Below, in pieces: positions 3,316 to 28,668 of a stretch of DNA of 64,000 nucleotides. The stretch comes from a virus. The DNA lies in IMG/VR virus record IMGVR_UViG_3300009285_004753, positions 28,280 through 92,279 of that record. One strand, written 5' to 3'. Position 1 is the first letter of the stretch; every line of letters starts with the position of its first letter. Both the position numbers and the translations under genes were made by a program. The notes under the pieces are model-generated. The model saw nothing but the letters and a program-made list of their open reading frames with translations. It ran no database searches and was not told the origin of the DNA.

Positions 3316-3600
3316 TCACCCCACCTGCGTCAAAAGACGCGTTTTCGGGTTGAACCAGCCGTGGCGACGACCGACACCGGCGGCCCCCAGGGTCACAAAA
3401 TCGAAGTAGCACTGTTCGGTCGGATTCGGATCAGGGTCGAAGAACGGACGGACGATCTCGAACGACTCTCCAAGATAAATGGCGTGAACCGTGTACAGCG
3501 CACCACAGCGCGTACACTTGACTACGCTCCTCGTCTTCGTACCGTTACCGGGATCAGTCGCCAGCTTACATGCACAGGCAGGGCATCCATCCGTCTTCAT
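3316..3600 (-). CDS. Zinc-ribbon protein (CPAC..CTRC)
   Basis: Two CxxC pairs; GGAGG RBS about 8 nt before ATG 3600. Confidence 0.65.
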   Translation of the reverse strand: MKTDGCPACACKLATDPGNGTKTRSVVKCTRCGALYTVHAIYLGESFEIVRPFFDPDPNPTEQCYFDFVTLGAAGVGRRHGWFNPKTRLLTQVG

Positions 3601-3630
3601 CGGCATCGCCTCCGGTTATCACCCAGCCCG

Positions 3631-3658
3631 ATTACCATGCAATCAGCGTGCCAGTCAA
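3631..3658 (-). promoter_or_regulatory. Candidate promoter TTGACT-N15-TGGTAAT upstream of the early gene block
   Basis: Minus-strand TTGACTggcacgctgattgcaTGGTAAT in an intergenic gap just before an RBS; the -10 is non-canonical. Confidence 0.4.
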
Positions 3659-3725
3659 GCCCTATTTTTCGTAACCAGCGAGAACCAAAGCAAACTGATT
3701 ACCCGTAACAGAAGTGAGACAGCAC

Positions 3726-3887
3726 CTATTGTGTAGCACGGTGAAACATGCGCCTCAGAATGAGCGTCGCAGAAAACAACACCTGCTCGACCGGAACCGG
3801 GGGAGTTTCAGTACTGGCACACGCGACTGCAAAACTCTGAGCATCCAATTCCGCACCAACAAACAAGACCCCCGACAACATCGTCAT
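3726..3887 (-). CDS. Possible small protein (53 aa)
   Basis: ATG overlaps the methyltransferase stop (ATGA); no recognisable motif. Confidence 0.3.
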   Translation of the reverse strand: MTMLSGVLFVGAELDAQSFAVACASTETPPVPVEQVLFSATLILRRMFHRATQ

Positions 3888-5488
3888 GGCCGGCACGCCA
3901 TGAACGCACGAATGAACTCCGCAGCGAGCGGCGGCACTATTGCGTTTCCGTACGCGCGCAGTTGCCCCGTGCGACCGGGCCTGACGGGAGCGATCGGGCT
4001 GACCGAGCTTATGCAAAATCGGCCTCCACTACATATACCGCACCCCGCTTTCTCTTCGTCAGAAATGGATTCCCATGCTTTTTGAATCTCTGATAGTGTC
4101 GTGGGCACATCCCCGCCTTGACTGAGGTAACGCTGCAAAAACGACAAGGCGGCTTCGGTTTTGCCGTCTCCCGTCGCAAGCGCCCATGCTCTTTCATGTG
4201 ACACACAAAACACACGGGCGTCAGGTTGTCCGGGGCATTGTTCATTGGGTTGCCGTCCGCGGGATGTACGTTCAAATTGCGCGCAGTCCCGCAGTCCCGG
4301 CAATTCTTCCCGACGTGCTTTGCTGCCTGTCTCCGGTATGCCTTCGGCGACTCTACCTTGATCCTCCCCATCTGCCACGACGCCATGCATCTCCTGTCGC
4401 AGAACAGCCGCTGGTTGAATACCGAAAGATCCTCCAACCTCAGCCCGAACACCTTCCGCATCATACGCACAGCGCATTGCTTGCAATATTTCTCTGGAGT
4501 TTCCTTCTGTTTGCGCCCCATACATCACCCCCGTTTCCCTCTGGCAGGTGCCAATTGAGTCCATTGTATGGGCAACCCCATCAGATAGCAGACGAATTCT
4601 GGGGCGAGTCGGGCGAGACTTTCCGTCCCGGCAGGAAAGCCATTCGATGTCGGACCAGGGGCCTGCGCCGCCTGCCGGGGCAACTGGTCGAGTCGTTCCC
4701 GCCCCGTCCCGTCCGGGTTGATCCCCGTCGTCGCCATACCCGGTGTGTCCTTCCAGTCTCTGCTGCTTGGCGTTGTCCAGCCGACCAGTTGCACCTGGTC
4801 CTCCAGGTTCCGCACATCTCCCGGCTGTACCCGATTCCCGCCCGCGTCGCCCCGTGCCCGCGGCGTCTGCCAGCCGACAAACTTCACAGCGTGCTCCAGG
4901 CTCGCCGTGTGTTTCTTCCCGTCCTGCGTGCGCCCCGTGGCATCCATCTTGTCCACATCCATCGTTCGTCCGCCGCTTGGCGTGTTGGGAGTCGGCCACC
5001 CAGTACAGCCGCTGCCGGATGTGCGGTGCGCCGACGCTACAAGCTGGAAGTACCGTCGCCCCGCAGGTGTAACCTTCTCCTTCCAGGTCGTCGAATACAA
5101 GATCGAGCCAACCCCCTCCAATTGCTGCTCCAACCTGCTCGCCAAACACAGTGTCAGGCTTGCACTCGCGGATGAGACGGTAGAAGTCTGGCCAGAGATG
5201 TCGGTCATCACACACTCCTCTCCGATTGCCTGCAACAGAAAACGGCTGACAAGGAGCCGAGCCGGTCCACACGGGGCGTCCCTCGGGCCAACCAGCGAGA
5301 TGCAGGGCCAGCGGCCAACCAGCGATCCCGGCAAAGAAGTGGCATTGCGTATACCCGTGCAAATCTGCGGGGGAAACCGTCTGTATCGGCCTGTCGTCGA
5401 TGTCGCCCAACGGTATGTGCCCCGCCACCATGAGGTTCCACAGCCACGCGACGCAGTACGGATCAATCTCGTTGTAGTACGCGACCAC
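3884..5488 (-). CDS. DNA (cytosine-5) methyltransferase, large (alpha) subunit
   Basis: HFFAGIAGW (motif I), TGSAPCQPFS (catalytic PC, IV), FGEQV (VI), PHIRQRLYWV (VIII), QLRAYGNAIVPPLA (X). Motif IX is absent from this frame. Confidence 0.92.
   Translation of the reverse strand: MVAYYNEIDPYCVAWLWNLMVAGHIPLGDIDDRPIQTVSPADLHGYTQCHFFAGIAGWPLALHLAGWPEGRPVWTGSAPCQPFSVAGNRRGVCDDRHLWPDFYRLIRECKPDTVFGEQVGAAIGGGWLDLVFDDLEGEGYTCGATVLPACSVGAPHIRQRLYWVADSQHAKRRTNDGCGQDGCHGAHAGREETHGEPGARCEVCRLADAAGTGRRGRESGTAGRCAEPGGPGATGRLDNAKQQRLEGHTGYGDDGDQPGRDGAGTTRPVAPAGGAGPWSDIEWLSCRDGKSRPTRPRIRLLSDGVAHTMDSIGTCQRETGVMYGAQTEGNSREILQAMRCAYDAEGVRAEVGGSFGIQPAAVLRQEMHGVVADGEDQGRVAEGIPETGSKARREELPGLRDCAQFERTSRGRQPNEQCPGQPDARVFCVSHERAWALATGDGKTEAALSFLQRYLSQGGDVPTTLSEIQKAWESISDEEKAGCGICSGGRFCISSVSPIAPVRPGRTGQLRAYGNAIVPPLAAEFIRAFMACRP
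4009..4521 (-). CDS. Nested HNH endonuclease-like protein inside the methyltransferase gene
   Basis: CxxC...FCDRRC, CRDC..VHPADGNPMNNAPDNL..VCFVCHMKEH, C-terminal CRFC..MCPRHYQR. Starts 3 nt after the beta stop, with GGGGGTGA RBS. Confidence 0.8.
   Translation of the reverse strand: MGRKQKETPEKYCKQCAVRMMRKVFGLRLEDLSVFNQRLFCDRRCMASWQMGRIKVESPKAYRRQAAKHVGKNCRDCGTARNLNVHPADGNPMNNAPDNLTPVCFVCHMKEHGRLRRETAKPKPPCRFCSVTSVKAGMCPRHYQRFKKHGNPFLTKRKRGAVYVVEADFA
4525..5208 (-). CDS. Nested alternative-frame methyltransferase beta subunit (TRD plus motif IX)
   Basis: Own RBS (GAGGAG, 6 nt before ATG 5208). 227 aa with WPTP/WQTP/WTTP repeats and RLAPEFVCYLMGLPIQWT (motif IX-like). Confidence 0.8.
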   Translation of the reverse strand: MTDISGQTSTVSSASASLTLCLASRLEQQLEGVGSILYSTTWKEKVTPAGRRYFQLVASAHRTSGSGCTGWPTPNTPSGGRTMDVDKMDATGRTQDGKKHTASLEHAVKFVGWQTPRARGDAGGNRVQPGDVRNLEDQVQLVGWTTPSSRDWKDTPGMATTGINPDGTGRERLDQLPRQAAQAPGPTSNGFPAGTESLARLAPEFVCYLMGLPIQWTQLAPARGKRG

Positions 5489-5491
5489 ACT

Positions 5492-5902
5492 TCACCGATC
5501 GACCGAGTACAATAGCACAGCACAATCGACACATATGCCGGGAGCAAACGTCACCATACCGGAAACAACAACGTCCGGTATGACCGGACCGACGGACGCT
5601 ACCGCAACATCTGAATCAACACCGGCTATCGCGCGTCTGAAACGGATCACACACCCCCACAACCCGCCACCGATATGCGTCAGCCGCTCCCTGCAAACCG
5701 GGAACGGAGCCGGAAACCCCCCAGCGAGCACCAGCGCCTCCTCGGCAACACGCGCATCATTCGCGGCGCCGAGGCTGTCCGCCAGTATCTGAGTTGCCGT
5801 AGCGACAGATAGACGGGGAGACAAGCGCACGCCCTGCAAGAGGAGAGAAAGCGCAATATCCAATTCCGGGAACACAGGCCCGCGCCGAGACCAATCGCTC
5901 AT
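5492..5902 (-). CDS. Hypothetical protein
   Basis: 136-aa coupled ORF. Confidence 0.55.
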   Translation of the reverse strand: MSDWSRRGPVFPELDIALSLLLQGVRLSPRLSVATATQILADSLGAANDARVAEEALVLAGGFPAPFPVCRERLTHIGGGLWGCVIRFRRAIAGVDSDVAVASVGPVIPDVVVSGMVTFAPGICVDCAVLLYSVDR

Positions 5903-6605: not shown

Positions 6606-6955
6606 CTGATCCTCCGCGACATCCGGTACAACACGCTGTTCGACGTCATTACCGGAGTCAATAGACCGCGACACTTCTTCGGCCGGTGCACCGGCTCCGG
6701 CACAGGATCAGGCACCGACAATACCACGTTAAACCCGACAAACGATTCACTATCGCTGGCGTATGCGCGGTCAACAGAAACCAAGGCGCTGCCCGCCCAC
6801 TTGGCAACAACGAAATCACCAACAAGAGCGAACAGTAAACTGTCGTCACCCCGCGCACAGGCGCGACGAAACGGCAGCGGCAGACCACTCGCATGCGCGT
6901 TCCACGTCAGACGTGAAACGAAGACCTGCTGCTCGTGTCTGCCCTGCACATTCAT
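6602..6955 (-). CDS. Hypothetical protein
   Basis: 117 aa, coupled to the primase stop. Confidence 0.5.
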   Translation of the reverse strand: MNVQGRHEQQVFVSRLTWNAHASGLPLPFRRACARGDDSLLFALVGDFVVAKWAGSALVSVDRAYASDSESFVGFNVVLSVPDPVPEPVHRPKKCRGLLTPVMTSNSVLYRMSRRIR

Positions 6956-7983
6956 TGTAACGACCTCAGTTGCGCCTGTACCTGATCAAGCGTGAACGCC
7001 CGCTTAGTAACCGGTTGACACCGCCGAGAAATCAGTCCGATCGACTGCACCATGAAACTCATGTGCACCAACGGATCATACGGCCGACGAGCGCAGAACA
7101 AGTGCGCCAGTTGGTACGGAGGCACAGACGCCGGATCATCATCGTGACCCGGAAACTCCAACACCGACGTTTCAACGCCGCTGGAACGGAGCATCGCGGC
7201 AATAGCGTATGCCTTACCAACGGCATCGCCATCCAGAGCAACGCAGACCTCACGGAACCCAGCGGCAGCGATCAGAGCCAATTGCCGATCAGTCACGTGC
7301 TTCCCGTAACCAGCGATTATTCGGTCCCCCAGCGCCTGGGACGCTATGACCGCAGAGATTGGTCCCTCAACCAACACCGCAATATCCCGCCGCAACACAC
7401 GCCGCAGTTGGTAGACCTGGTCCCGCCTGGACACGGGTGCGTTCCGATACTTGTTCCGGTGCCCGACGAAAGTCCGCCCGACCCAATACAGCGGAATACC
7501 GTGTTCATCCTCATCAACGAAGACTACGCGTCCACGGAGGTCGTATGCCTCATTTCGCGCACCCTCGAATATCCTGTACCGCCGAATTGACCAGTCGGAG
7601 ATCCCACGGTCACGCAGATAGTTGTACCCGGCGGTCGTAAGCGGTTGCAGCGGCGGAACGGGCAGCACCTTGGCTTCTTCCGCCTTCTCTTCTTCCTCTT
7701 CCAGCAGGCTGACCATGTCGTCCAAGCACCGGCACTCAGGGTGCGTGTACAGATACGCCAGCCCGAGCCGACGATACAGCCCTTCAATCGACCCCCCCTC
7801 TTCGCACCGATGACAGAACCAGCGGCCCTTCTTCGGATTGAGGTAGAGTGGCATTTTATGCGTATGACTGTTCAGTACAGAGTTACAGAACGGACAAGCG
7901 AACCGGACCTCGCTGCCCGACGCCGAGTGAATCGGATCGCCAAGCACACGAACAAGAACCGGATCAGTCCCGACCACTGGCAC
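6952..7983 (-). CDS. DNA primase (CHC2 zinc finger plus TOPRIM)
   Basis: FACPFC..H...WFCHRC zinc finger, RGRVVF, VLVEGPISA, VALDGDAVG (DxD). Confidence 0.9.
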   Translation of the reverse strand: MPVVGTDPVLVRVLGDPIHSASGSEVRFACPFCNSVLNSHTHKMPLYLNPKKGRWFCHRCEEGGSIEGLYRRLGLAYLYTHPECRCLDDMVSLLEEEEEKAEEAKVLPVPPLQPLTTAGYNYLRDRGISDWSIRRYRIFEGARNEAYDLRGRVVFVDEDEHGIPLYWVGRTFVGHRNKYRNAPVSRRDQVYQLRRVLRRDIAVLVEGPISAVIASQALGDRIIAGYGKHVTDRQLALIAAAGFREVCVALDGDAVGKAYAIAAMLRSSGVETSVLEFPGHDDDPASVPPYQLAHLFCARRPYDPLVHMSFMVQSIGLISRRCQPVTKRAFTLDQVQAQLRSLQ

Positions 7984-8971: not shown

Positions 8972-10330
8972 CTACGACACCGAGGCAGGGAGCGCCTGTA
9001 CCGGCAACACTCCCGCAGGCGGAACAATGTACTCAGTCATGTACATGCGGAAGTAATCAACATACATCGGGATCAGTTTGAACTTCCGTCCGCGGCGCAC
9101 CTTATCAACCCACAAGCGCCCCATGCACTTGTCGTACTCCTCGCGCGTCTGATTGATCGATACGACCCCATCAGCGATCTGGACTTTCTTGATCGACTCA
9201 CCGATGCGGTCCATGCGCAACTCTTCATCGCCCTTTGAAGGACGCCAGCGCTGAACCTGCGACCCCGTCCACACCAGGCAATCAAAGTCTCGGGCAAGCT
9301 GCTGCAACTGAGAATAGACGCTCTTCCCCGCCTGATAGGAATTCTCGTTGTTCATCTCCGCCAACTCGTCGGCGTAGTCCACCACGACCAGCGCCGGCGC
9401 TACGCCATCAACGGCCCGCAGTTTAGCCAAGTGCGCCCGCAGCGTTTCGACTGTGGGCCGACCCGACGGGTAGTATTTAACCCGCAAGTAGAAGGGATTG
9501 AGGCCCCACGCTCCGTCGGCGAAGAATGCCCCGAGCGGGCCGTTCGGCTTCACGATCTCAAACGTCGGAATCCCCGTGAAACGGGAACCGAAGCGGAGCA
9601 ACACATCCGACTCCTCTAAATCTCCGATCGTGTAGTACACCACCGGAAACCCCTGCTTTATCGCCGCCGCTGCCATGTTCAGCATCCAGACGGACTTCCC
9701 CCCGCCAGACAGTCCAAGAACGACCCACACCTCACCGCGGCAAGGTCCACCAAACGCGCAATGGTCAAGCGACGGAATGGCGGTCGGTACCCGCCGACGG
9801 CGCTGGTTCTCCGACCGGATGATCTGCGCCAGCGCCGGAAGCTGCTGATGCACGTTTGTCCCGATTCGCGTCACATCAAACCCGGCGAGTGTCGCCTCAG
9901 TCATTATCTTGCGGCAGTCCTCCTCGTCGCCGTTATTCCGCAAGATATCGATGCACTTGTAGATCCCGTCCTTCATCGCCTGCCGTCGGCCGAACTTCAC
10001 GACAGCTTCCTTCACATACTCCGAATCGCGGACCTCGGACTGATACATCGCCCGAATGGACTGCATCAGTGCTTCCGTCTGCTCCGGGGCGTAGGCAGCG
10101 ATCTGTGCGTACTGACGTACCTCTGTCAGCAACGTGGTCTGGTCCGGCATACTCCGCCGCTCGTCGTAATACTTCAGGAGCAGCATCGCAGCTACGGACA
10201 GGTCCGTCGTCTCGAAATATCCGGGTGAAAGTACGTCCCGAAATGACGGCACGAACATCGGGTCACGGAGCATCACCGTGACGATGCGCGCCTGAAAGCC
10301 TATGTCAAAAGTATAGCGGGGAGTTTCCAC
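8972..10330 (-). CDS. Replicative DnaB-like (T4 gp41-type) helicase
   Basis: Walker A GLSGGGKS, VVVDYADEL, SQVQR, IGESIKKVQIADGVVSI, DKVRRG. Confidence 0.92.
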   Translation of the reverse strand: METPRYTFDIGFQARIVTVMLRDPMFVPSFRDVLSPGYFETTDLSVAAMLLLKYYDERRSMPDQTTLLTEVRQYAQIAAYAPEQTEALMQSIRAMYQSEVRDSEYVKEAVVKFGRRQAMKDGIYKCIDILRNNGDEEDCRKIMTEATLAGFDVTRIGTNVHQQLPALAQIIRSENQRRRRVPTAIPSLDHCAFGGPCRGEVWVVLGLSGGGKSVWMLNMAAAAIKQGFPVVYYTIGDLEESDVLLRFGSRFTGIPTFEIVKPNGPLGAFFADGAWGLNPFYLRVKYYPSGRPTVETLRAHLAKLRAVDGVAPALVVVDYADELAEMNNENSYQAGKSVYSQLQQLARDFDCLVWTGSQVQRWRPSKGDEELRMDRIGESIKKVQIADGVVSINQTREEYDKCMGRLWVDKVRRGRKFKLIPMYVDYFRMYMTEYIVPPAGVLPVQALPASVS

Positions 10331-11766
10331 GGATCAGGTTCCTTTATCCAGTCCATCACGGAACAAACGCGGATACGTTCCCGCCGATAAAGCTTCAAAC
10401 GCCGCCGCGAATGGCGCTCGGTCGTCGGGTGCATCGCATCCCAGAAATCGAAGACGAGCAACGTATCTCCGACACCACGACTTCGCATCCCGCGGCCCAT
10501 ACGCTGATAGACCCGCCGCGGTTTCTTCCCCCCGCCGCACAGCATCACACCACCGAAATCGGGAATATCAACTCCCTCGTCCAGAGCGGGCGACGCGATT
10601 ACCACCACCTGATCACGCGACTGCACGTACTCACGCAACCGCTGCAAGTCCCACTCCTCCGGCTTCTCGCCGGGCTTGGTATAGACCTCGCGGTTCCCCG
10701 TCACAAAGATCGTGCCAGGGACATACCGCGAGATCAACTCCAGCAAAGGCAGCCCGTGAGCCTCCACATGCCCGACGAAGATCAGCAACTTGATCCCGCG
10801 GTCAACACACGTCCGGGCGATGTCGGCGGCAATGCCGTTGCGGACCCGGTTGCGCGTAATACACGCTGAGTAAAGCCCGTCCCACGACCGATCTTCGGGA
10901 ATCGGCTCAGACGACGACAGGACACCCGACATGATCACGAACGGCGTCGGCAAAATGCCGCGCTCGACCAGCACATGCAGCGGCACGTAAAGCAGTGGCA
11001 TCCCAATCAGGCCGATCAAAGCGAGATCGCGGGGAGCATACTCGTCAAGGTCTTCAAACAGCGTAGCAGACAGACCGAACCTGTAGGAAGCACCACACCT
11101 CTCCAACACCGCCACGTAACTCGACGCTGGAGAATGGTGAACCTCGTCGGCGATTACAACATCGCATGACTGCAGCAACGACAGTATACTGTCGTCCTGA
11201 TGCCGCAGCCCGTTGTTCAGCGTCTGAATCGTAGCGCACGTGACCGCATGCCCGAACTCCCTTGTGTCCCCCATCACCAGCCCGACATCGTCAATCCCGT
11301 ACTTCCTGTACCTAGCAGCAGCCTGCTCCGTAATGAACAGTGACCCGGAGCAGAACAAAATCTGTTTACCGTACCCGAGCAGGATCTTCGACGCAGCGAC
11401 AGCAGACTCCGTCTTGCCGGAGCCAGTAGGCAGTTCAATCAGCCCACGCCCGCCAGACAGCAGCTTCTGCACAGCGAGACGCTGATAGTCTCGCAGTTCA
11501 ACGCCGGGGAGCAAGCCGGTCAACCAGGCGTCAGAAACCTCAATCGGAACCGCCGTCGATTCTTCTACGACCACGACATCGGGCATCAGCTTGCGCACAA
11601 GTGGGACCAGCCCAGAATACATCTCACCGTCGGGCGATATGAACGCAAAGTCGGGTTCGTTTTCCAGCTTCAGCTTCACCGCCAGGTCTTGAATCTCCCA
11701 GTAGTCGGCATCGACAATTGTCTTGACCGGACCAACTTGGAGCTTCACCGCCCACCCCCACATCAT
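10300..11766 (-). CDS. SF2 helicase, UvsW-like
   Basis: LRDYQ, LPTGSGKT, DEVHH, GLSAT, LDEGVDIP, QRMGRGMR, VFDFWD. Exact start uncertain. Confidence 0.9.
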   Translation of the reverse strand: MMWGWAVKLQVGPVKTIVDADYWEIQDLAVKLKLENEPDFAFISPDGEMYSGLVPLVRKLMPDVVVVEESTAVPIEVSDAWLTGLLPGVELRDYQRLAVQKLLSGGRGLIELPTGSGKTESAVAASKILLGYGKQILFCSGSLFITEQAAARYRKYGIDDVGLVMGDTREFGHAVTCATIQTLNNGLRHQDDSILSLLQSCDVVIADEVHHSPASSYVAVLERCGASYRFGLSATLFEDLDEYAPRDLALIGLIGMPLLYVPLHVLVERGILPTPFVIMSGVLSSSEPIPEDRSWDGLYSACITRNRVRNGIAADIARTCVDRGIKLLIFVGHVEAHGLPLLELISRYVPGTIFVTGNREVYTKPGEKPEEWDLQRLREYVQSRDQVVVIASPALDEGVDIPDFGGVMLCGGGKKPRRVYQRMGRGMRSRGVGDTLLVFDFWDAMHPTTERHSRRRLKLYRRERIRVCSVMDWIKEPDPWKLPAILLT

Positions 11767-11849
11767 GCCTATACCACGAAACACAACTCCGCTTCGCCGT
11801 GACAGCTTAGCGGTGCAAACGCAACGGTATGTCCGCGGACATACGTGTA

Positions 11850-12146
11850 TCACCGCTTCGGGATTGTAGTAGAAACGTGAACAACCCGGTCTGCCGCCCG
11901 GAGGATCGAAGCCGGGACCGGAGCGCCCGCAGACAGCCGCCACTCGACGAACAAAGTCTGCTGCCGGGAATACCGTTCGATCGCCTCGCAGGCATACCGT
12001 TCGTAGTCGCCCTGCTCCGCAGCGCCCTCGTCGTCAGGCGAAATCACGAAAACCAGGGAAGCGGGCGACAAATGCATCCGCCGCTGCATCCCGTCGATGA
12101 ACGCGCTCTTGCCGGCACCCGCCTCTCCTACCACGAGCCAAATCAT
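11850..12146 (-). CDS. Minimal P-loop NTPase-like protein (98 aa)
   Basis: MIWLVVGEAGAGKS Walker A; LFVE Walker-B-like. Confidence 0.6.
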   Translation of the reverse strand: MIWLVVGEAGAGKSAFIDGMQRRMHLSPASLVFVISPDDEGAAEQGDYERYACEAIERYSRQQTLFVEWRLSAGAPVPASILRAADRVVHVSTTIPKR

Positions 12147-12162: not shown

Positions 12163-12651
12163 TCATGGCCGTCGCCAGTCGAAGATCTCCCACGCCACAC
12201 CATACGGCTGCTCAATCAGCGGTATGAGTACGACAGACACCGTCTGCTGCACCTTGTTTTCCCGCGGACACGCAAACCCGAACTCGCCGCGCTGCATGCC
12301 CGGCCACACCAAACGAAGCTGTTCCCTATCTGCATCCGTCATCATCGCCCGGAGCAGATCGCCATACATGCGGTCTGCCCGCACAAGCCCCGACATGTAA
12401 TCAGCGTAACTGGAGAGGGAAAACACGAGGATGTCTGTCTGCAGCACATGGAAGTTGCCGATCAACCGTCTACGGTAGCAAGGCCCGAGTTCCCGACGAG
12501 CAAGCGACGAAAACCGCCCGCGGACCAGCAAGCAGTCCGCGGGCCAGTGGTCGAACAAGGCAACCAACCCCGCCAGCCGGGAAGACGCGACGGCGACTTC
12601 GCTACGCTGCGTGACCCAAGCAAGCAACTGGTCGCGTAGCGTAGCGTTCAC
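12163..12651 (-). CDS. Hypothetical protein
   Basis: GTG start behind GGGGGTG RBS; 162 aa. Confidence 0.55.
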   Translation of the reverse strand: MNATLRDQLLAWVTQRSEVAVASSRLAGLVALFDHWPADCLLVRGRFSSLARRELGPCYRRRLIGNFHVLQTDILVFSLSSYADYMSGLVRADRMYGDLLRAMMTDADREQLRLVWPGMQRGEFGFACPRENKVQQTVSVVLIPLIEQPYGVAWEIFDWRRP

Positions 12652-12677
12652 GTACAGACACCCCCGTCTGCTAGTAT

Positions 12678-12707
12678 CTATACCACAAACCGGCGTTACA
12701 CCGTCAA
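12678..12707 (-). promoter_or_regulatory. Candidate promoter TTGACG-N16-TGGTATAG at the head of the replication block
   Basis: Same TGGTA(T)A core as at 3631, 8959 and 11769; lies just upstream of an RBS. Confidence 0.4.
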
Positions 12708-12922
12708 CCACCCGCCTGTATGTGCCGCCCCGCTTGAAGTAGCAAATCAGCGAGAACAGGCAGATCTGCGGGCTTCAAGTTGGCCCCACGCCTGAACGAG
12801 CCATTGACTCGCCGGTAGATGACGACGTCCACGAAAGCCCGACCGCCGGCATCCGCGTTCCGATAGACGGCAACCAGGACCGAACCGTACTGAAACCTCG
12901 CCGTCTGACTGACTGCCAGCAT
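12704..12922 (-). CDS. Small protein, PC4-like ssDNA-binding candidate
   Basis: 72 aa; beta strands, then RRGANLKPADLPVLADLL helix as in PC4-like proteins. Confidence 0.45.
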   Translation of the reverse strand: MLAVSQTARFQYGSVLVAVYRNADAGGRAFVDVVIYRRVNGSFRRGANLKPADLPVLADLLLQAGRHIQAGG

Positions 12923-14016
12923 CAGCGGTTGAACGGAGACGGGGGCGTCCGACCGGGAAACAACGGTTTACGCTGCGCACGCGGCTTCTTGGGCAGCAGT
13001 CGCTTTCCAATCTGACGCAAGCCCTTCTTAGCGGCGCGGCGAGCGATACCGACCCACGACCTGTCGCTGTACTGAATACCAAGCAGGTCCGCCATCAACC
13101 GCACCAGCGCAGCACCGCCGGTCTTGCGCTCTATTTCTTCGTACTTGGCAGCAGACACGCGCTCTTGTTTCAGGTAACAATGACAATGCTCCCGACAGAT
13201 CGTGTGCCCCGCCCGCGGGTACGTCGGGAGTGTTGCCTTTGTGTAGGGGCTGTGCTCTTGTATCTTGATACAATCGGGGCATGACTCAATGAATGTCCGC
13301 ACCCAGTGGTAAATCATGTGCTCGACAGCCGCCTCTGGATCTTCCTCCGGTTCTTCCTCGGGTACCTCCTCCGGCTCCGGCTCTTCCTTCGGCTCTTCCG
13401 GGGGTAACTGCGGACCCTTGACCGGCGGCGCTTCCGGCTTCGGCGCTTCCTTCGGTTCTTCCTTGGACACCTTCGGTTCTTCCGGTGGAGGTAACTGCGG
13501 ACCCTTGACCGGCGGCTCGACTTCCTTCTCCGGCTTACCGAACGTGCGGCGTACAACATCGGTCGTCCGGCGCGCGACGTCCTTCACCCAGGACGCCGCC
13601 TTACTACCTGCCCGCTTCAGCGCCGAGCCTACACGCTCAATCGTCTTGCGGAACTCATAAAGCGTCCGCGAGTACCGGATCGCCTCTTCCAGCCATTCCC
13701 GATCCCGCGGCTCTGACAGGTCCAAAGCAACCGCAGTCCGGATAGCATCTTCAAGAAAATCAGCGTCGATGGCTTCATCCAACGGCGCGCCATGCGTCAA
13801 CCCACGGAGATACGCAGCACCAAGCGTATCGGCCGTTCTTTCAGCGAACAAAGCGGAGTCAGTTTCTTCATCCAGCCGAGCCAACGCCCCGACGTGCGCT
13901 TCGATTCGAGCAGACAGTACCGCTTCATCGAGAGATGGACCCGCGACGGAAGAGAAATCCTCAATCCGCTCCAACAGGTAATACAGACCCGGAAACCGCT
14001 GCCTGAACTCAGCCAT
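12922..14016 (-). CDS. MuF-like minor head/portal-associated protein with Pro/Glu linker
   Basis: SCPDCI...PRAGHTICREHCHCYL MuF-type Cys/His signature; adjacent to the portal gene. Confidence 0.65.
   Translation of the reverse strand: MAEFRQRFPGLYYLLERIEDFSSVAGPSLDEAVLSARIEAHVGALARLDEETDSALFAERTADTLGAAYLRGLTHGAPLDEAIDADFLEDAIRTAVALDLSEPRDREWLEEAIRYSRTLYEFRKTIERVGSALKRAGSKAASWVKDVARRTTDVVRRTFGKPEKEVEPPVKGPQLPPPEEPKVSKEEPKEAPKPEAPPVKGPQLPPEEPKEEPEPEEVPEEEPEEDPEAAVEHMIYHWVRTFIESCPDCIKIQEHSPYTKATLPTYPRAGHTICREHCHCYLKQERVSAAKYEEIERKTGGAALVRLMADLLGIQYSDRSWVGIARRAAKKGLRQIGKRLLPKKPRAQRKPLFPGRTPPSPFNR
13403..13516. repeat. 27-bp exact direct repeat (13403-13429 and 13490-13516)
   Basis: ggtaactgcggacccttgaccggcggc twice; encodes PPVKGPQLP. 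Confidence 0.85.
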
Positions 14017-27675: not shown

Positions 27676-28668
27676 TCACGATGATGTCTTTTTGGCGTTC
27701 GACCACAAGCGGCTGAACGCGTAGACGTTGGGGCCGGCGGCAGCGGAAGCAAAGCCGGTAATGAACATGTCGTCGGTGAAATCGCCGGGCCTCGGGATCT
27801 GGTTCAACTGCTGGCGGATGACGTCCACGCCGGCGCCGGTGTCCAGATACAGGAAATACCCGCCCAACGCCATCACCTGCTTCAGGTTCTTTATGTAATT
27901 GGCGATGTTCTCCAGAGCGTGTACCAGTGCCTGCGCCTTGGCAAGCAACATCAGTCCCGCCTCTTTCAGCGTGTCTTCCAGATAGGAGTTCTGTACCAGG
28001 TATTCTGCGATCCGGTCGAACTCTCGATCCAACACGGCGGCCATGTCAGGGAACACGTCACGTAACGCCGCGCCTTTCCAGTCCGGCGGACGGGAATGGG
28101 TGACGGCTGGATTGAGTCCGCCTTTGGCAAAGAACGCCATCCGGTCGTACAGTTTCCGCAGGTCGTCTGTGCGGATCAGATCCATCGCAGCGTGAACCAG
28201 GTTCATTATTTCAACGAACGTCGGCGCCGCCGCCATGTAGACACATACGGCAATCGGACCGGTCGTGATCGGACGGCGCGTATCCCCGAGGTCTGTCAAC
28301 GTCCCGGCGATTCGCGACATGAAGTGTGAGTATGTGTGGGGAAACCCCTCTTCGTACAGCCGGTGTCCTGTTCGCAGGTGATACAGGTAGTCGTCGAGAG
28401 CGTAGTCCCACAGCGGCAACAGGTACAGCCCCGTCATCAGGTATTCGTTCTTGATCTGCTGAATCAGCGCCGCAATCGCCGACATGTAGTTGATGCCGCT
28501 TTCAGCCAGGATCACGTTTTGTATTGCGGCCAGCCCGTTTGCTGCGGCTTCAAGCCCGGTGATAATCGGGGACATCGTTTCATCCAGCGCGGTATACGCC
28601 GTGTCCATATCGGCGCCGGCCGCTGTCAGCACGTCGGCAAGTGTACATTTGTTCCAGATTACGGTCAT
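27676..28668 (-). CDS. Hypothetical baseplate-region protein
   Basis: 330 aa, ATGA coupled. Confidence 0.65.
   Translation of the reverse strand: MTVIWNKCTLADVLTAAGADMDTAYTALDETMSPIITGLEAAANGLAAIQNVILAESGINYMSAIAALIQQIKNEYLMTGLYLLPLWDYALDDYLYHLRTGHRLYEEGFPHTYSHFMSRIAGTLTDLGDTRRPITTGPIAVCVYMAAAPTFVEIMNLVHAAMDLIRTDDLRKLYDRMAFFAKGGLNPAVTHSRPPDWKGAALRDVFPDMAAVLDREFDRIAEYLVQNSYLEDTLKEAGLMLLAKAQALVHALENIANYIKNLKQVMALGGYFLYLDTGAGVDVIRQQLNQIPRPGDFTDDMFITGFASAAAGPNVYAFSRLWSNAKKTSS

Follow-up and report, generated by a model that had tools for sequence, protein, structure and literature searches.

We analysed a 64,000-nucleotide (nt) stretch of viral DNA (the window; positions 28,280–92,279 of IMG/VR record IMGVR_UViG_3300009285_004753, which is 104 kb long and estimated to be ~51% complete) and describe here a DNA methyltransferase locus in which three genes are packed on two reading frames. 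The methyltransferase frame, alpha (3884..5488, minus strand), contains wholly within it two smaller genes on the same strand, one encoding a second methyltransferase polypeptide, beta (4525..5208), and one encoding an HNH endonuclease (4009..4521). The explanation that we favour, and regard as quite probable, is that the locus is a phage orphan two-polypeptide cytosine-5 (C5) methyltransferase carrying a selfish HNH cassette through which alpha is read. Each component has a published counterpart. M.EcoHK31I (Lee, Kam and Shaw 1995), from E. coli HK31, is, as described in PMC2836561, a heterodimeric C5 methyltransferase for which both chains are needed, and the ShiLan domain denotes out-of-frame HNH insertions that are hidden in the DNA methylases of mycobacteriophages (Arsenault, Gosselin and Gogarten 2025, PMC11855218; earlier PMC9957025).

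Three genes on two reading frames

An earlier note on this DNA had placed three overlapping open reading frames (ORFs) at the coordinates above, and when the ORFs of the window are listed and translated all three are present on the minus strand. Alpha has a GTG start and a TGA stop and encodes 534 amino acids (aa), whereas beta (227 aa) and the HNH gene (170 aa) both start with ATG and follow one another in a shared frame, +1 to that of alpha, the gap consisting of TGA and one codon. The dual-coded length is 684 + 513 = 1197 nt, in good agreement with the ~1.2 kb that had been estimated, and the alpha frame is free of stops across both of the nested ORFs.

When the codons of the HNH gene are shuffled synonymously, the alpha frame is expected to acquire 5.8–5.9 stops and is open in only 0.06–0.07% of trials (p ~0.0007); similar shuffles of beta give an expectation of 4.2 stops, with the alpha frame staying open in 0.6% of trials. 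The third frame contains 9 stops opposite the HNH gene and 5 opposite beta, close to expectation. The open alpha frame is more than a product of chance or a by-product of composition.

Alpha and beta as the probable two parts of a C5 methyltransferase

Alpha matches the Pfam family DNA_methylase (PF00145) with 63.9 bits against a cutoff of 22 (residues 75–169), and matches phrog_363 (E=3.8e-71) in two stretches that together account for most of the 327-position methylase profile. Searches of the locus with NCBIfam gave just the dcm superfamily and weak YajD/ZorE HNH matches, all under the cutoff. The earlier note had assigned motifs I–VIII and X to alpha and a motif IX-like segment to beta, which is right in substance, and the alpha motifs can be located as FFAGIAG (51–57), PCQPFS (79–84), GEQV (116–119), IRQRLYW (157–163) and GNAIV (514–518). 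Judged by motifs IV, VI, VIII, I and X, all of which are in place, alpha belongs to the C5-cytosine DNA methyltransferases and would methylate cytosine at C5. Among 59 homologues, P79, C80, E117, R158 and R160 are invariant, as are G514 of motif X and D288 and R292 of a hairpin described below, and N515, A516 and I517 are conserved in at least 90%. In alpha's family the S-adenosylmethionine (SAM)-loop motif FxGxGG lies only ~25 residues ahead of PCQ, and is preceded by YYNExD...GDxDxR (window 5338–5488, alpha residues 1–57); the latter resembles motifs II and III, here in front of motif I, and the N-terminal motifs may be permuted.

An AlphaFold2 model of alpha is confident for residues 1–175 and 510–534, with values of the predicted local distance difference test (pLDDT) below 50 for residues 178–273 and 299–440. 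Leaving aside the insertion, four parts can be distinguished, all on the minus strand. Residues 1–175 (4964..5488) constitute the catalytic large domain with the FFAGIAG, PCQPFS, GEQV and IRQRLYW motifs and a pLDDT of ~90 or more. They are followed by a low-complexity spacer (residues 176–275; 4664..4963; pLDDT <50) that varies widely in length and sequence among homologues and overlaps the WxTP repeats and RDWKDTPGM motif of beta. A small beta-hairpin (residues 276–306, GPWSDIEWLSCRDGKSRP...LLSDGVA; 4571..4663) is dual-coded with the motif IX region of beta and forms part of the predicted beta interface, and residues 506–534 (3887..3973) comprise RTGQLRAYGNAIVPPLAAEFIRAFMACRP, motif X and the C-terminal helix, with a pLDDT of 76–96 and modelled contacts to beta residues 198–224. 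The spacer is probably constrained mainly to stay stop-free, and the conservation of alpha within the overlap is apparently for the most part a shadow of beta, as with GLEGHAGDG opposite RDWKDTPGM. The CRDGKxR hairpin is an exception: its invariant D288 and R292 face a part of beta that is less conserved, and this short segment is therefore apparently selected in both frames.

Beta matches phrog_1008 ('DNA methyltransferase', E = 3e-20) and its ATG is preceded by a Shine-Dalgarno (SD) sequence, GGAGAGGAG (5215..5223, minus strand), with a 6 nt spacer as read from the sequence. The protein has an N-terminal helix, three WxTP repeats, RDWKDTPGM, DQLPRQ and a motif IX-like segment, RLAPEFVCYLMGLPIQWT (200–217). 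A tblastn search with beta matched 213 cultured-phage records, and for Klebsiella phage ST101-KPC2phi6.1 and Rhodobacter phage RcBigEagle beta aligns within an annotated methylase coding sequence but in another frame. In the 80 viral loci recovered with beta, alpha and beta always occupy frames 1 and 2, and alpha is open from the N-terminal domain to motif X in ~73 of these. An alignment of 54 beta sequences has 14 invariant columns, RDWKDTPGM included; LNPxxxxWLMGxPxxW is also conserved, and contacts the motif X helix of alpha in the model. Public annotation usually calls one frame only: in Cylindrospermopsis phage Cr-LKS3 (L001) it is the beta frame that is named methyltransferase, and in Komagataeibacter phage phiKX1 (L099, LC644975.1 ~12238–13884) the 549-aa alpha is unannotated, with fragments called 'hypothetical protein'.

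The predicted complex of alpha and beta has an interaction prediction score from aligned errors (ipSAE) of 0.88, compared with 0.00 for the best of three controls. A value of 0.88 is reached by 58 of 80 solved complexes and by 2 of 110 mismatched pairs, a calibration that is approximate since own alignments were used. At least 73% of contacts are common to the complex runs, with a partner pLDDT of 58 or more. The predicted interface involves alpha residues 11–166, 277–295 and 496–533, with the N-terminal helix and motif IX region of beta contacting alpha at its N-terminal domain, its hairpin and its motif X helix; inserted residues 307–495 are uninvolved. According to the model, alpha and beta would form a two-polypeptide, two-frame methylase that is presumably active as a heterodimer, and the recurrence of the layout in ~73 of 80 loci favours the M.EcoHK31I-type arrangement that the earlier note had proposed, with the docking score, which may reflect likeness to single-chain structures, pointing the same way. 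Because alpha residues 178–273 are disordered and variable in length, and the conserved WxTP repeats and RDWKDTPGM are in beta, the target-recognition part appears to reside in beta and not in alpha.

An HNH cassette inserted before motif X

Homologues without the HNH gene read unbroken as ...FPLAHGxP-ARVGRLRAYGNAIV, whereas alpha of the window has 199 extra residues (307–505) between LLSDGVA and RTGQLRAYGNAIV that are absent from most relatives. Alignment of alphas with and without the HNH gene defines an inserted segment of 597 nt (3974..4570, minus strand), a multiple of three, which contains the new tail and stop of beta, the HNH gene, and a short 3' linker. The insertion point is directly before motif X. 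The earlier note had put the insertion in the variable spacer of alpha, but the spacer is at residues ~176–275 and the cassette is instead located at the 3' hand-over point preceding motif X.

In HNH-free loci, beta continues past the insertion point (...WLMGxPxEWDxCAxTAxxSSRK) and overlaps motif X of alpha. In HNH-bearing loci this overlapped stretch is present in two copies, the upstream one keeping the beta reading followed by a stop, and the downstream one keeping RxGxLRxYGNAIV of alpha. The flank repeat is clear in L047 (47 nt, ~75% identical) and in phiKX1 (AWDQCA... and AWDDCAVTAMPSSRKS). A plausible explanation for tolerance of the cassette is that duplication of the overlapped flank keeps both genes whole.

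We find no indication that the insert is removed by splicing, consistent with the earlier suggestion that the HNH gene was inserted without splicing and that alpha, whose frame is open, reads through it. Cmscan of 3500–5900 reported no Rfam intron (group I or II) at E of 1 or better, and alpha contains no Hint/intein Pfam domain, the insert being disordered in the host frame. A group I intron was considered and rejected, as the HNH ORF leaves just ~50 nt of the insert free, which is not enough for a group I core. The read-through segment is mostly disordered with one short helical hairpin in the AlphaFold2 model, and across the cassettes the host frame has a mean pairwise identity of 0.27, compared with 0.29 for the unused frame and 0.42 for the HNH frame. 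Since the read-through is unconserved, disordered and outside the predicted interface, it behaves as a tolerated loop rather than as a domain.

Distribution of the cassette

Relatives of the HNH protein with 33–45% identity are found in the alpha/beta methylase loci L019, L024, L025 and L047, in Komagataeibacter phages phiKX1 and phiKX2, in Staphylococcus phage CUB-EPI_14, and in ten viral contigs with methylases of a different, single-chain type, which have RRLTxxECxxLQGFP and motif X following the insert. The HNH gene is +1 to the host frame in 17 of 17 cassettes and the host frame is free of stops in all of them, against 3.1–11.1 stops expected (three host contexts); in the AT-rich Staphylococcus phage cassette it is open in spite of an expectation of 11.1. 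Stops in the unused frame of the 17 cassettes are near the expected number. Selection keeps the host frame open across the cassette. The earlier note had proposed examining the alpha frame in loci with and without the insert, and no random stops were encountered in any of the 17 cassettes.

In a tree of the N-terminal domain of alpha (59 sequences), the five HNH-bearing alleles need five changes, with well-supported branches forcing at least three, and monophyly of the HNH-bearing alleles is rejected (approximately unbiased [AU] test, p = 0.0009). This disjunct distribution points to homing as the likely mode of spread. The HNH tree splits by host methylase type with support of 94/93, and we therefore discarded the idea of frequent jumps between the two methylase families, as the tree is clean by host type and a single switch suffices.

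Some single-chain hosts carry a further conserved ORF of ~170–215 aa in an alternative frame (L007–L014, e.g. L007:1624-2175, and L006:2056-2655). In L006–L014 it has ...SLSDVLETGxxPxxYxLSxxACxGILRRAERRGKxLP... and overlaps the motif IV–VIII region, and in L006 motifs I–V and VI–X are in different frames. Hosts L006–L014 may constitute another two-frame methylase family.

The HNH gene, its start and the state of this copy

The HNH protein matches several HNH PHROGs (best E = 5e-7), with the Pfam HNH match below cutoff, and is composed of an N-terminal CxxC...CxxxC module, a CxxC/CxxCH core, and a C-terminal CxxC...CxxH-YxRFKKHG module. CxxC, H86, N99, CxxCH and H112 are invariant in the HNH alignment. 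At the second His of the HH dyad the window has proline (Pro87, codon CCC, 4261..4263, minus strand), reading VHPADGN where 16 of 16 relatives have VHHxDGN; H87 is present in 9 of the 10 rows of HNH alignment A3. Logan contigs from two studies, representing three further groundwater runs, have the identical Pro87 codon, making an assembly error unlikely. The general base of beta-beta-alpha-Me nucleases is contributed by the second residue of the D/H-H pair (colicin E9 H103, Cas9 H840), and we take the Pro87 position to be that of the general-base His of HNH. By this analogy the HNH copy in the window is probably catalytically impaired, as would be expected late in a homing cycle. A PDB profile search with the HNH alignment returned weak matches only (DotN, IscB), from which the catalytic His cannot be mapped, and a search for close copies of the HNH protein returned the protein of the window alone. 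The earlier identification of a homing endonuclease thus stands as regards an HNH insertion with a disjunct distribution, but active homing by the copy with proline in place of the second His is doubtful.

The HNH ATG (4521) is one codon after the beta TGA and behind a G-rich run (CGGGGGTGATGT-ATG), the beta/HNH junction CGG GGG TGA TGT (4522..4533, minus strand) consisting of the SD-like run, the beta stop and one spacer codon. The same arrangement of a stop, 0–2 codons and an ATG, together with an SD-like run, is seen in all five alpha/beta hosts that have the stop (the window, L019, L024, L047 and phiKX1), and an SD-like run also precedes the HNH ATG of cassettes in single-chain hosts. In L025 (2279–3871) the beta frame enters the HNH gene without a stop or a separate ATG, predicting a beta-HNH fusion protein. 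The simplest reading of these sequences is that the HNH gene is translated by internal initiation, aided by termination-reinitiation after beta; with its start 4 nt after the beta stop it is positioned for the coupling to beta that the earlier note had put forward, and is presumably coupled.

A model for the locus and its alternatives

We propose that alpha would contribute an N-terminal catalytic large domain (motifs I, IV, VI and VIII) and a C-terminal motif X, joined by the stop-free spacer, and that beta, starting internally in the +1 frame, would contribute the DNA-recognition part (WxTP repeats, RDWKDTPGM) and the equivalent of motif IX, and dock onto alpha. A homing-type HNH cassette of ~600 bp would have entered where the tail of beta overlaps alpha's lead-in to motif X, with a length that is a multiple of three, no stops in the host frame and, at its flank, a re-coded duplicate of the overlapped target. 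Beta would then terminate on the upstream copy of the duplicated flank, and the HNH gene, which shares the frame of beta, has an SD-like run of its own and starts 4 nt beyond the beta stop, would be expressed by internal initiation or termination-reinitiation. Ribosomes making alpha would read the nuclease gene as a loop of ~200 mostly disordered residues, and alpha would regain motif X from the downstream copy, such that neither RNA nor protein splicing is required. The cassette of the window would be a fixed element that cuts poorly or no longer cuts, given the proline at the second His.

Several points weigh against this model. The alpha-beta pair corresponds to a natural split of a fold that has often been solved as a single chain, and the docking score may reflect that likeness rather than binding by this copy. 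The window beta also has A for N202 and Y for W208, both of them positions of motif IX that hardly vary in the family, and a loop of 200 residues beside motif X could impair the methylase. The flank duplication is barely recognisable in the window at the nucleotide level, with a trace, CARTETQ, remaining downstream in beta's frame. The locus is unchanged in the contigs of four groundwater runs, none of which joins across the cassette, though the absence of empty alleles is not demonstrable in this way; with no HNH-free allele of this phage in those contigs, mobility rests on comparison with distant relatives. Lastly, the beta ATG at 5208 is poorly conserved, 19 of 62 loci having ATG and 36 having ACG at that position, and a beta-frame GTG at 5490 lies 2 nt upstream of the alpha GTG at 5488; the non-conserved ATG and the upstream GTG together leave the true start of beta uncertain.

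As to that start, the ATG overlaps alpha's D-D/E codons, and the low number of loci that have it led us to reject a conserved beta start at this place. The beta frame upstream of the ATG is open in the window itself (p = 0.03), and a long form of beta (321 aa) may start at GTG 5490. A family-wide start of beta at the start of alpha is unsupported, with 1.4 beta-frame stops observed upstream against 1.6 expected. The two GTG codons overlap as GTGTG (window 5486–5496), both behind one GGTGA, which holds the stop of the upstream gene (5492–5902).

An alternative is that the HNH protein is a domesticated partner of the methylase, the two forming a restriction-modification-like or addiction module in which the nuclease cuts an unmethylated target, the methylase protects it, and nesting ensures their co-inheritance. 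The HNH lineage is indeed found only within C5-methylase genes, in 17 of 17 loci recovered and also for both full-length cultured-phage matches, and the in-frame fusion of HNH to the recognition-repeat subunit beta in L025 could aim the nuclease at the methylase's own site. We nonetheless think this unlikely, in that the patchy occurrence (~5 of 80 related loci, scattered on the tree) is a better fit to a parasite, the window copy is without the conserved second His, duplication of the flanking target is typical of homing by repair, and ShiLan elements with the same pattern have been interpreted as homing elements (PMC11855218). It is a little less likely again that HNH insertion disrupted the methylase gene and left it dead, with the open alpha frame being a property of the cassette or a leftover. 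The enzyme is probably dispensable to the phage, as has been argued for ShiLan-type hosts (PMC11855218), and the two substitutions in beta, the seemingly degenerate HNH and the mostly disordered read-through would all suit a gene in decay; yet motif X remains intact beyond the insert, in agreement with the family consensus RxGxLRxYGNAIV, the catalytic invariants (PCQ, E117, R158, R160) are all retained, and alpha runs for 534 codons without a stop, with the shuffle test showing a codon choice that avoids them. Moreover, both flanking methylase parts are in frame at every independent HNH-bearing locus, and the model docks beta on the N- and C-terminal parts of alpha with the insert unused.

Still further down in probability, and in our view very improbable, is a single-chain methylase made by programmed ribosomal frameshifting (from alpha, +1 into beta, and back for motif X) or by removal of an unrecognised intron. 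The order of motifs across the frames (I–VIII in alpha, recognition and IX in beta, X in alpha) is the canonical single-chain order, and the lack of conservation of the beta ATG across the family would be accommodated readily. Frameshifting, however, requires two opposite shifts, the second of which must skip 500 nt when the cassette is present, and there is no conserved slippery site; an alpha spacer kept open over hundreds of codons in ~73 loci would be pointless if ribosomes left the frame, the window beta has a strong SD and an ATG, and M.EcoHK31I works as two separate polypeptides according to the description in PMC2836561. Intron removal is at odds with the absence of a match to Rfam introns and with the shortness of the sequence outside the HNH ORF. 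A different elaboration, compatible with a read-through selfish cassette, is that the cassette is specifically adapted to dual-coded targets, carrying a re-coded duplicate of the alpha/beta overlap, with one frame served by either copy, and borrowing the ribosomes of beta; an L025-type fusion would then be a nuclease aimed at the methylase site, and the whole a minimal restriction-modification-like selfish module. We consider this improbable, to about the same degree as domestication.

Genomic context

The record of 104 kb contains one HNH copy and one methylase copy. Adjoining genes encode a DNA polymerase (fragment, 3–899), a primase (6952–7983), a DnaB-like helicase (8972–10330) and another helicase (10300–11943), all on the minus strand, and the locus is therefore part of a phage replication module. 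Among the neighbouring genes checked, none was recognised as encoding a restriction enzyme. A 499-aa ORF on the plus strand (1021–2520) lies within a stretch of up to 71% G+C. In groundwater-run contigs the depth rises 8- to 20-fold over window 4968–5038 (motif VIII, PHIRQRLYW), with loose ends on either side; the short conserved methylase stretch at this position is common to many other organisms in the groundwater samples.

Relationship to known systems

The locus provides a clean and statistically supported natural case of three genes packed on two frames, and takes the hidden-HNH strategy beyond actinophages, into uncultivated groundwater viruses as well as phages of Proteobacteria and Staphylococcus. 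The locus suggests that a mobile element can enter a dual-coded region with neither gene being broken, provided that the overlap is present twice and that either copy decays in the frame it has ceased to serve. The SD-like run and the start right after a same-frame upstream stop also suggest an answer to the question of how a hidden nuclease is translated, which was left open in PMC11855218. For annotation, the consequence is that the two-frame methylase layout is common in phages and is routinely mis-annotated. Cultured carriers of the full arrangement are available in Komagataeibacter phages phiKX1 and phiKX2, and Staphylococcus phage CUB-EPI_14 represents the single-chain host type. A literature search found no paper combining a nested beta with a hidden HNH gene, and for a widespread two-frame phage methylase layout it yielded nothing beyond M.EcoHK31I.

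The resemblance to ShiLan is extensive. In both, the insertion is in a phage methylase, leaves the host frame free of stops and bears no mark of an intron or intein; its in-frame translation is largely disordered but includes a small helical element. Both also have a disjunct distribution among close relatives, an insert that begins much like the sequence following the insertion site, and an HNH with flanking zinc fingers. The ShiLan HNH is in the third frame of its host, with a GTG at insertion bases 18–20 (PMC11855218), whereas that of the window is in the +1 frame and has an ATG behind an SD-like run, making leaderless initiation unnecessary. ShiLan hosts are actinophages, whereas the hosts here are Gram-negative- and Staphylococcus-type phages and groundwater viruses, and tblastn matches to Mycobacterium phages are weak, confined to the HNH core with E of 0.01 or worse. 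The host gene is here already dual-coded, giving three genes on two frames. On these comparisons of sequence, the element of the window works like ShiLan but is a separate lineage. The intron-free and intein-free niche for a selfish gene that the earlier note had envisaged is not novel, having been published in 2025 as ShiLan (PMC11855218).

The two-frame layout has its closest parallel in M.EcoHK31I, in which, so far as it is described in PMC2836561, beta is likewise wholly inside alpha in another frame, and alpha has motifs I–VIII as well as X, with motif IX in beta. Compared by description, the alpha of M.EcoHK31I is said there to hold the target-recognition domain, whereas here the middle of alpha is a disordered spacer. 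The window gene also differs in being an orphan in a phage replication module, with no adjacent restriction enzyme gene.

A further comparison is with phage homing endonucleases that are free-standing or borne by introns or inteins, I-HmuI and I-TevIII being examples. The HNH gene of the window is like these in its placement in a conserved gene beside a conserved motif, its patchy occurrence and its re-coded flanks, but it has no self-splicing carrier, and the host protein instead keeps the insert translated in another frame. The hidden HNH and the two-frame methylase having each been published already, the locus is a combination of both and not a new kind of system. The new details are the cassette lineage and its relative frame, the duplicated flank with its divided work, the coupling of the HNH start to the beta stop that the junction suggests, and the proline in place of the second His.

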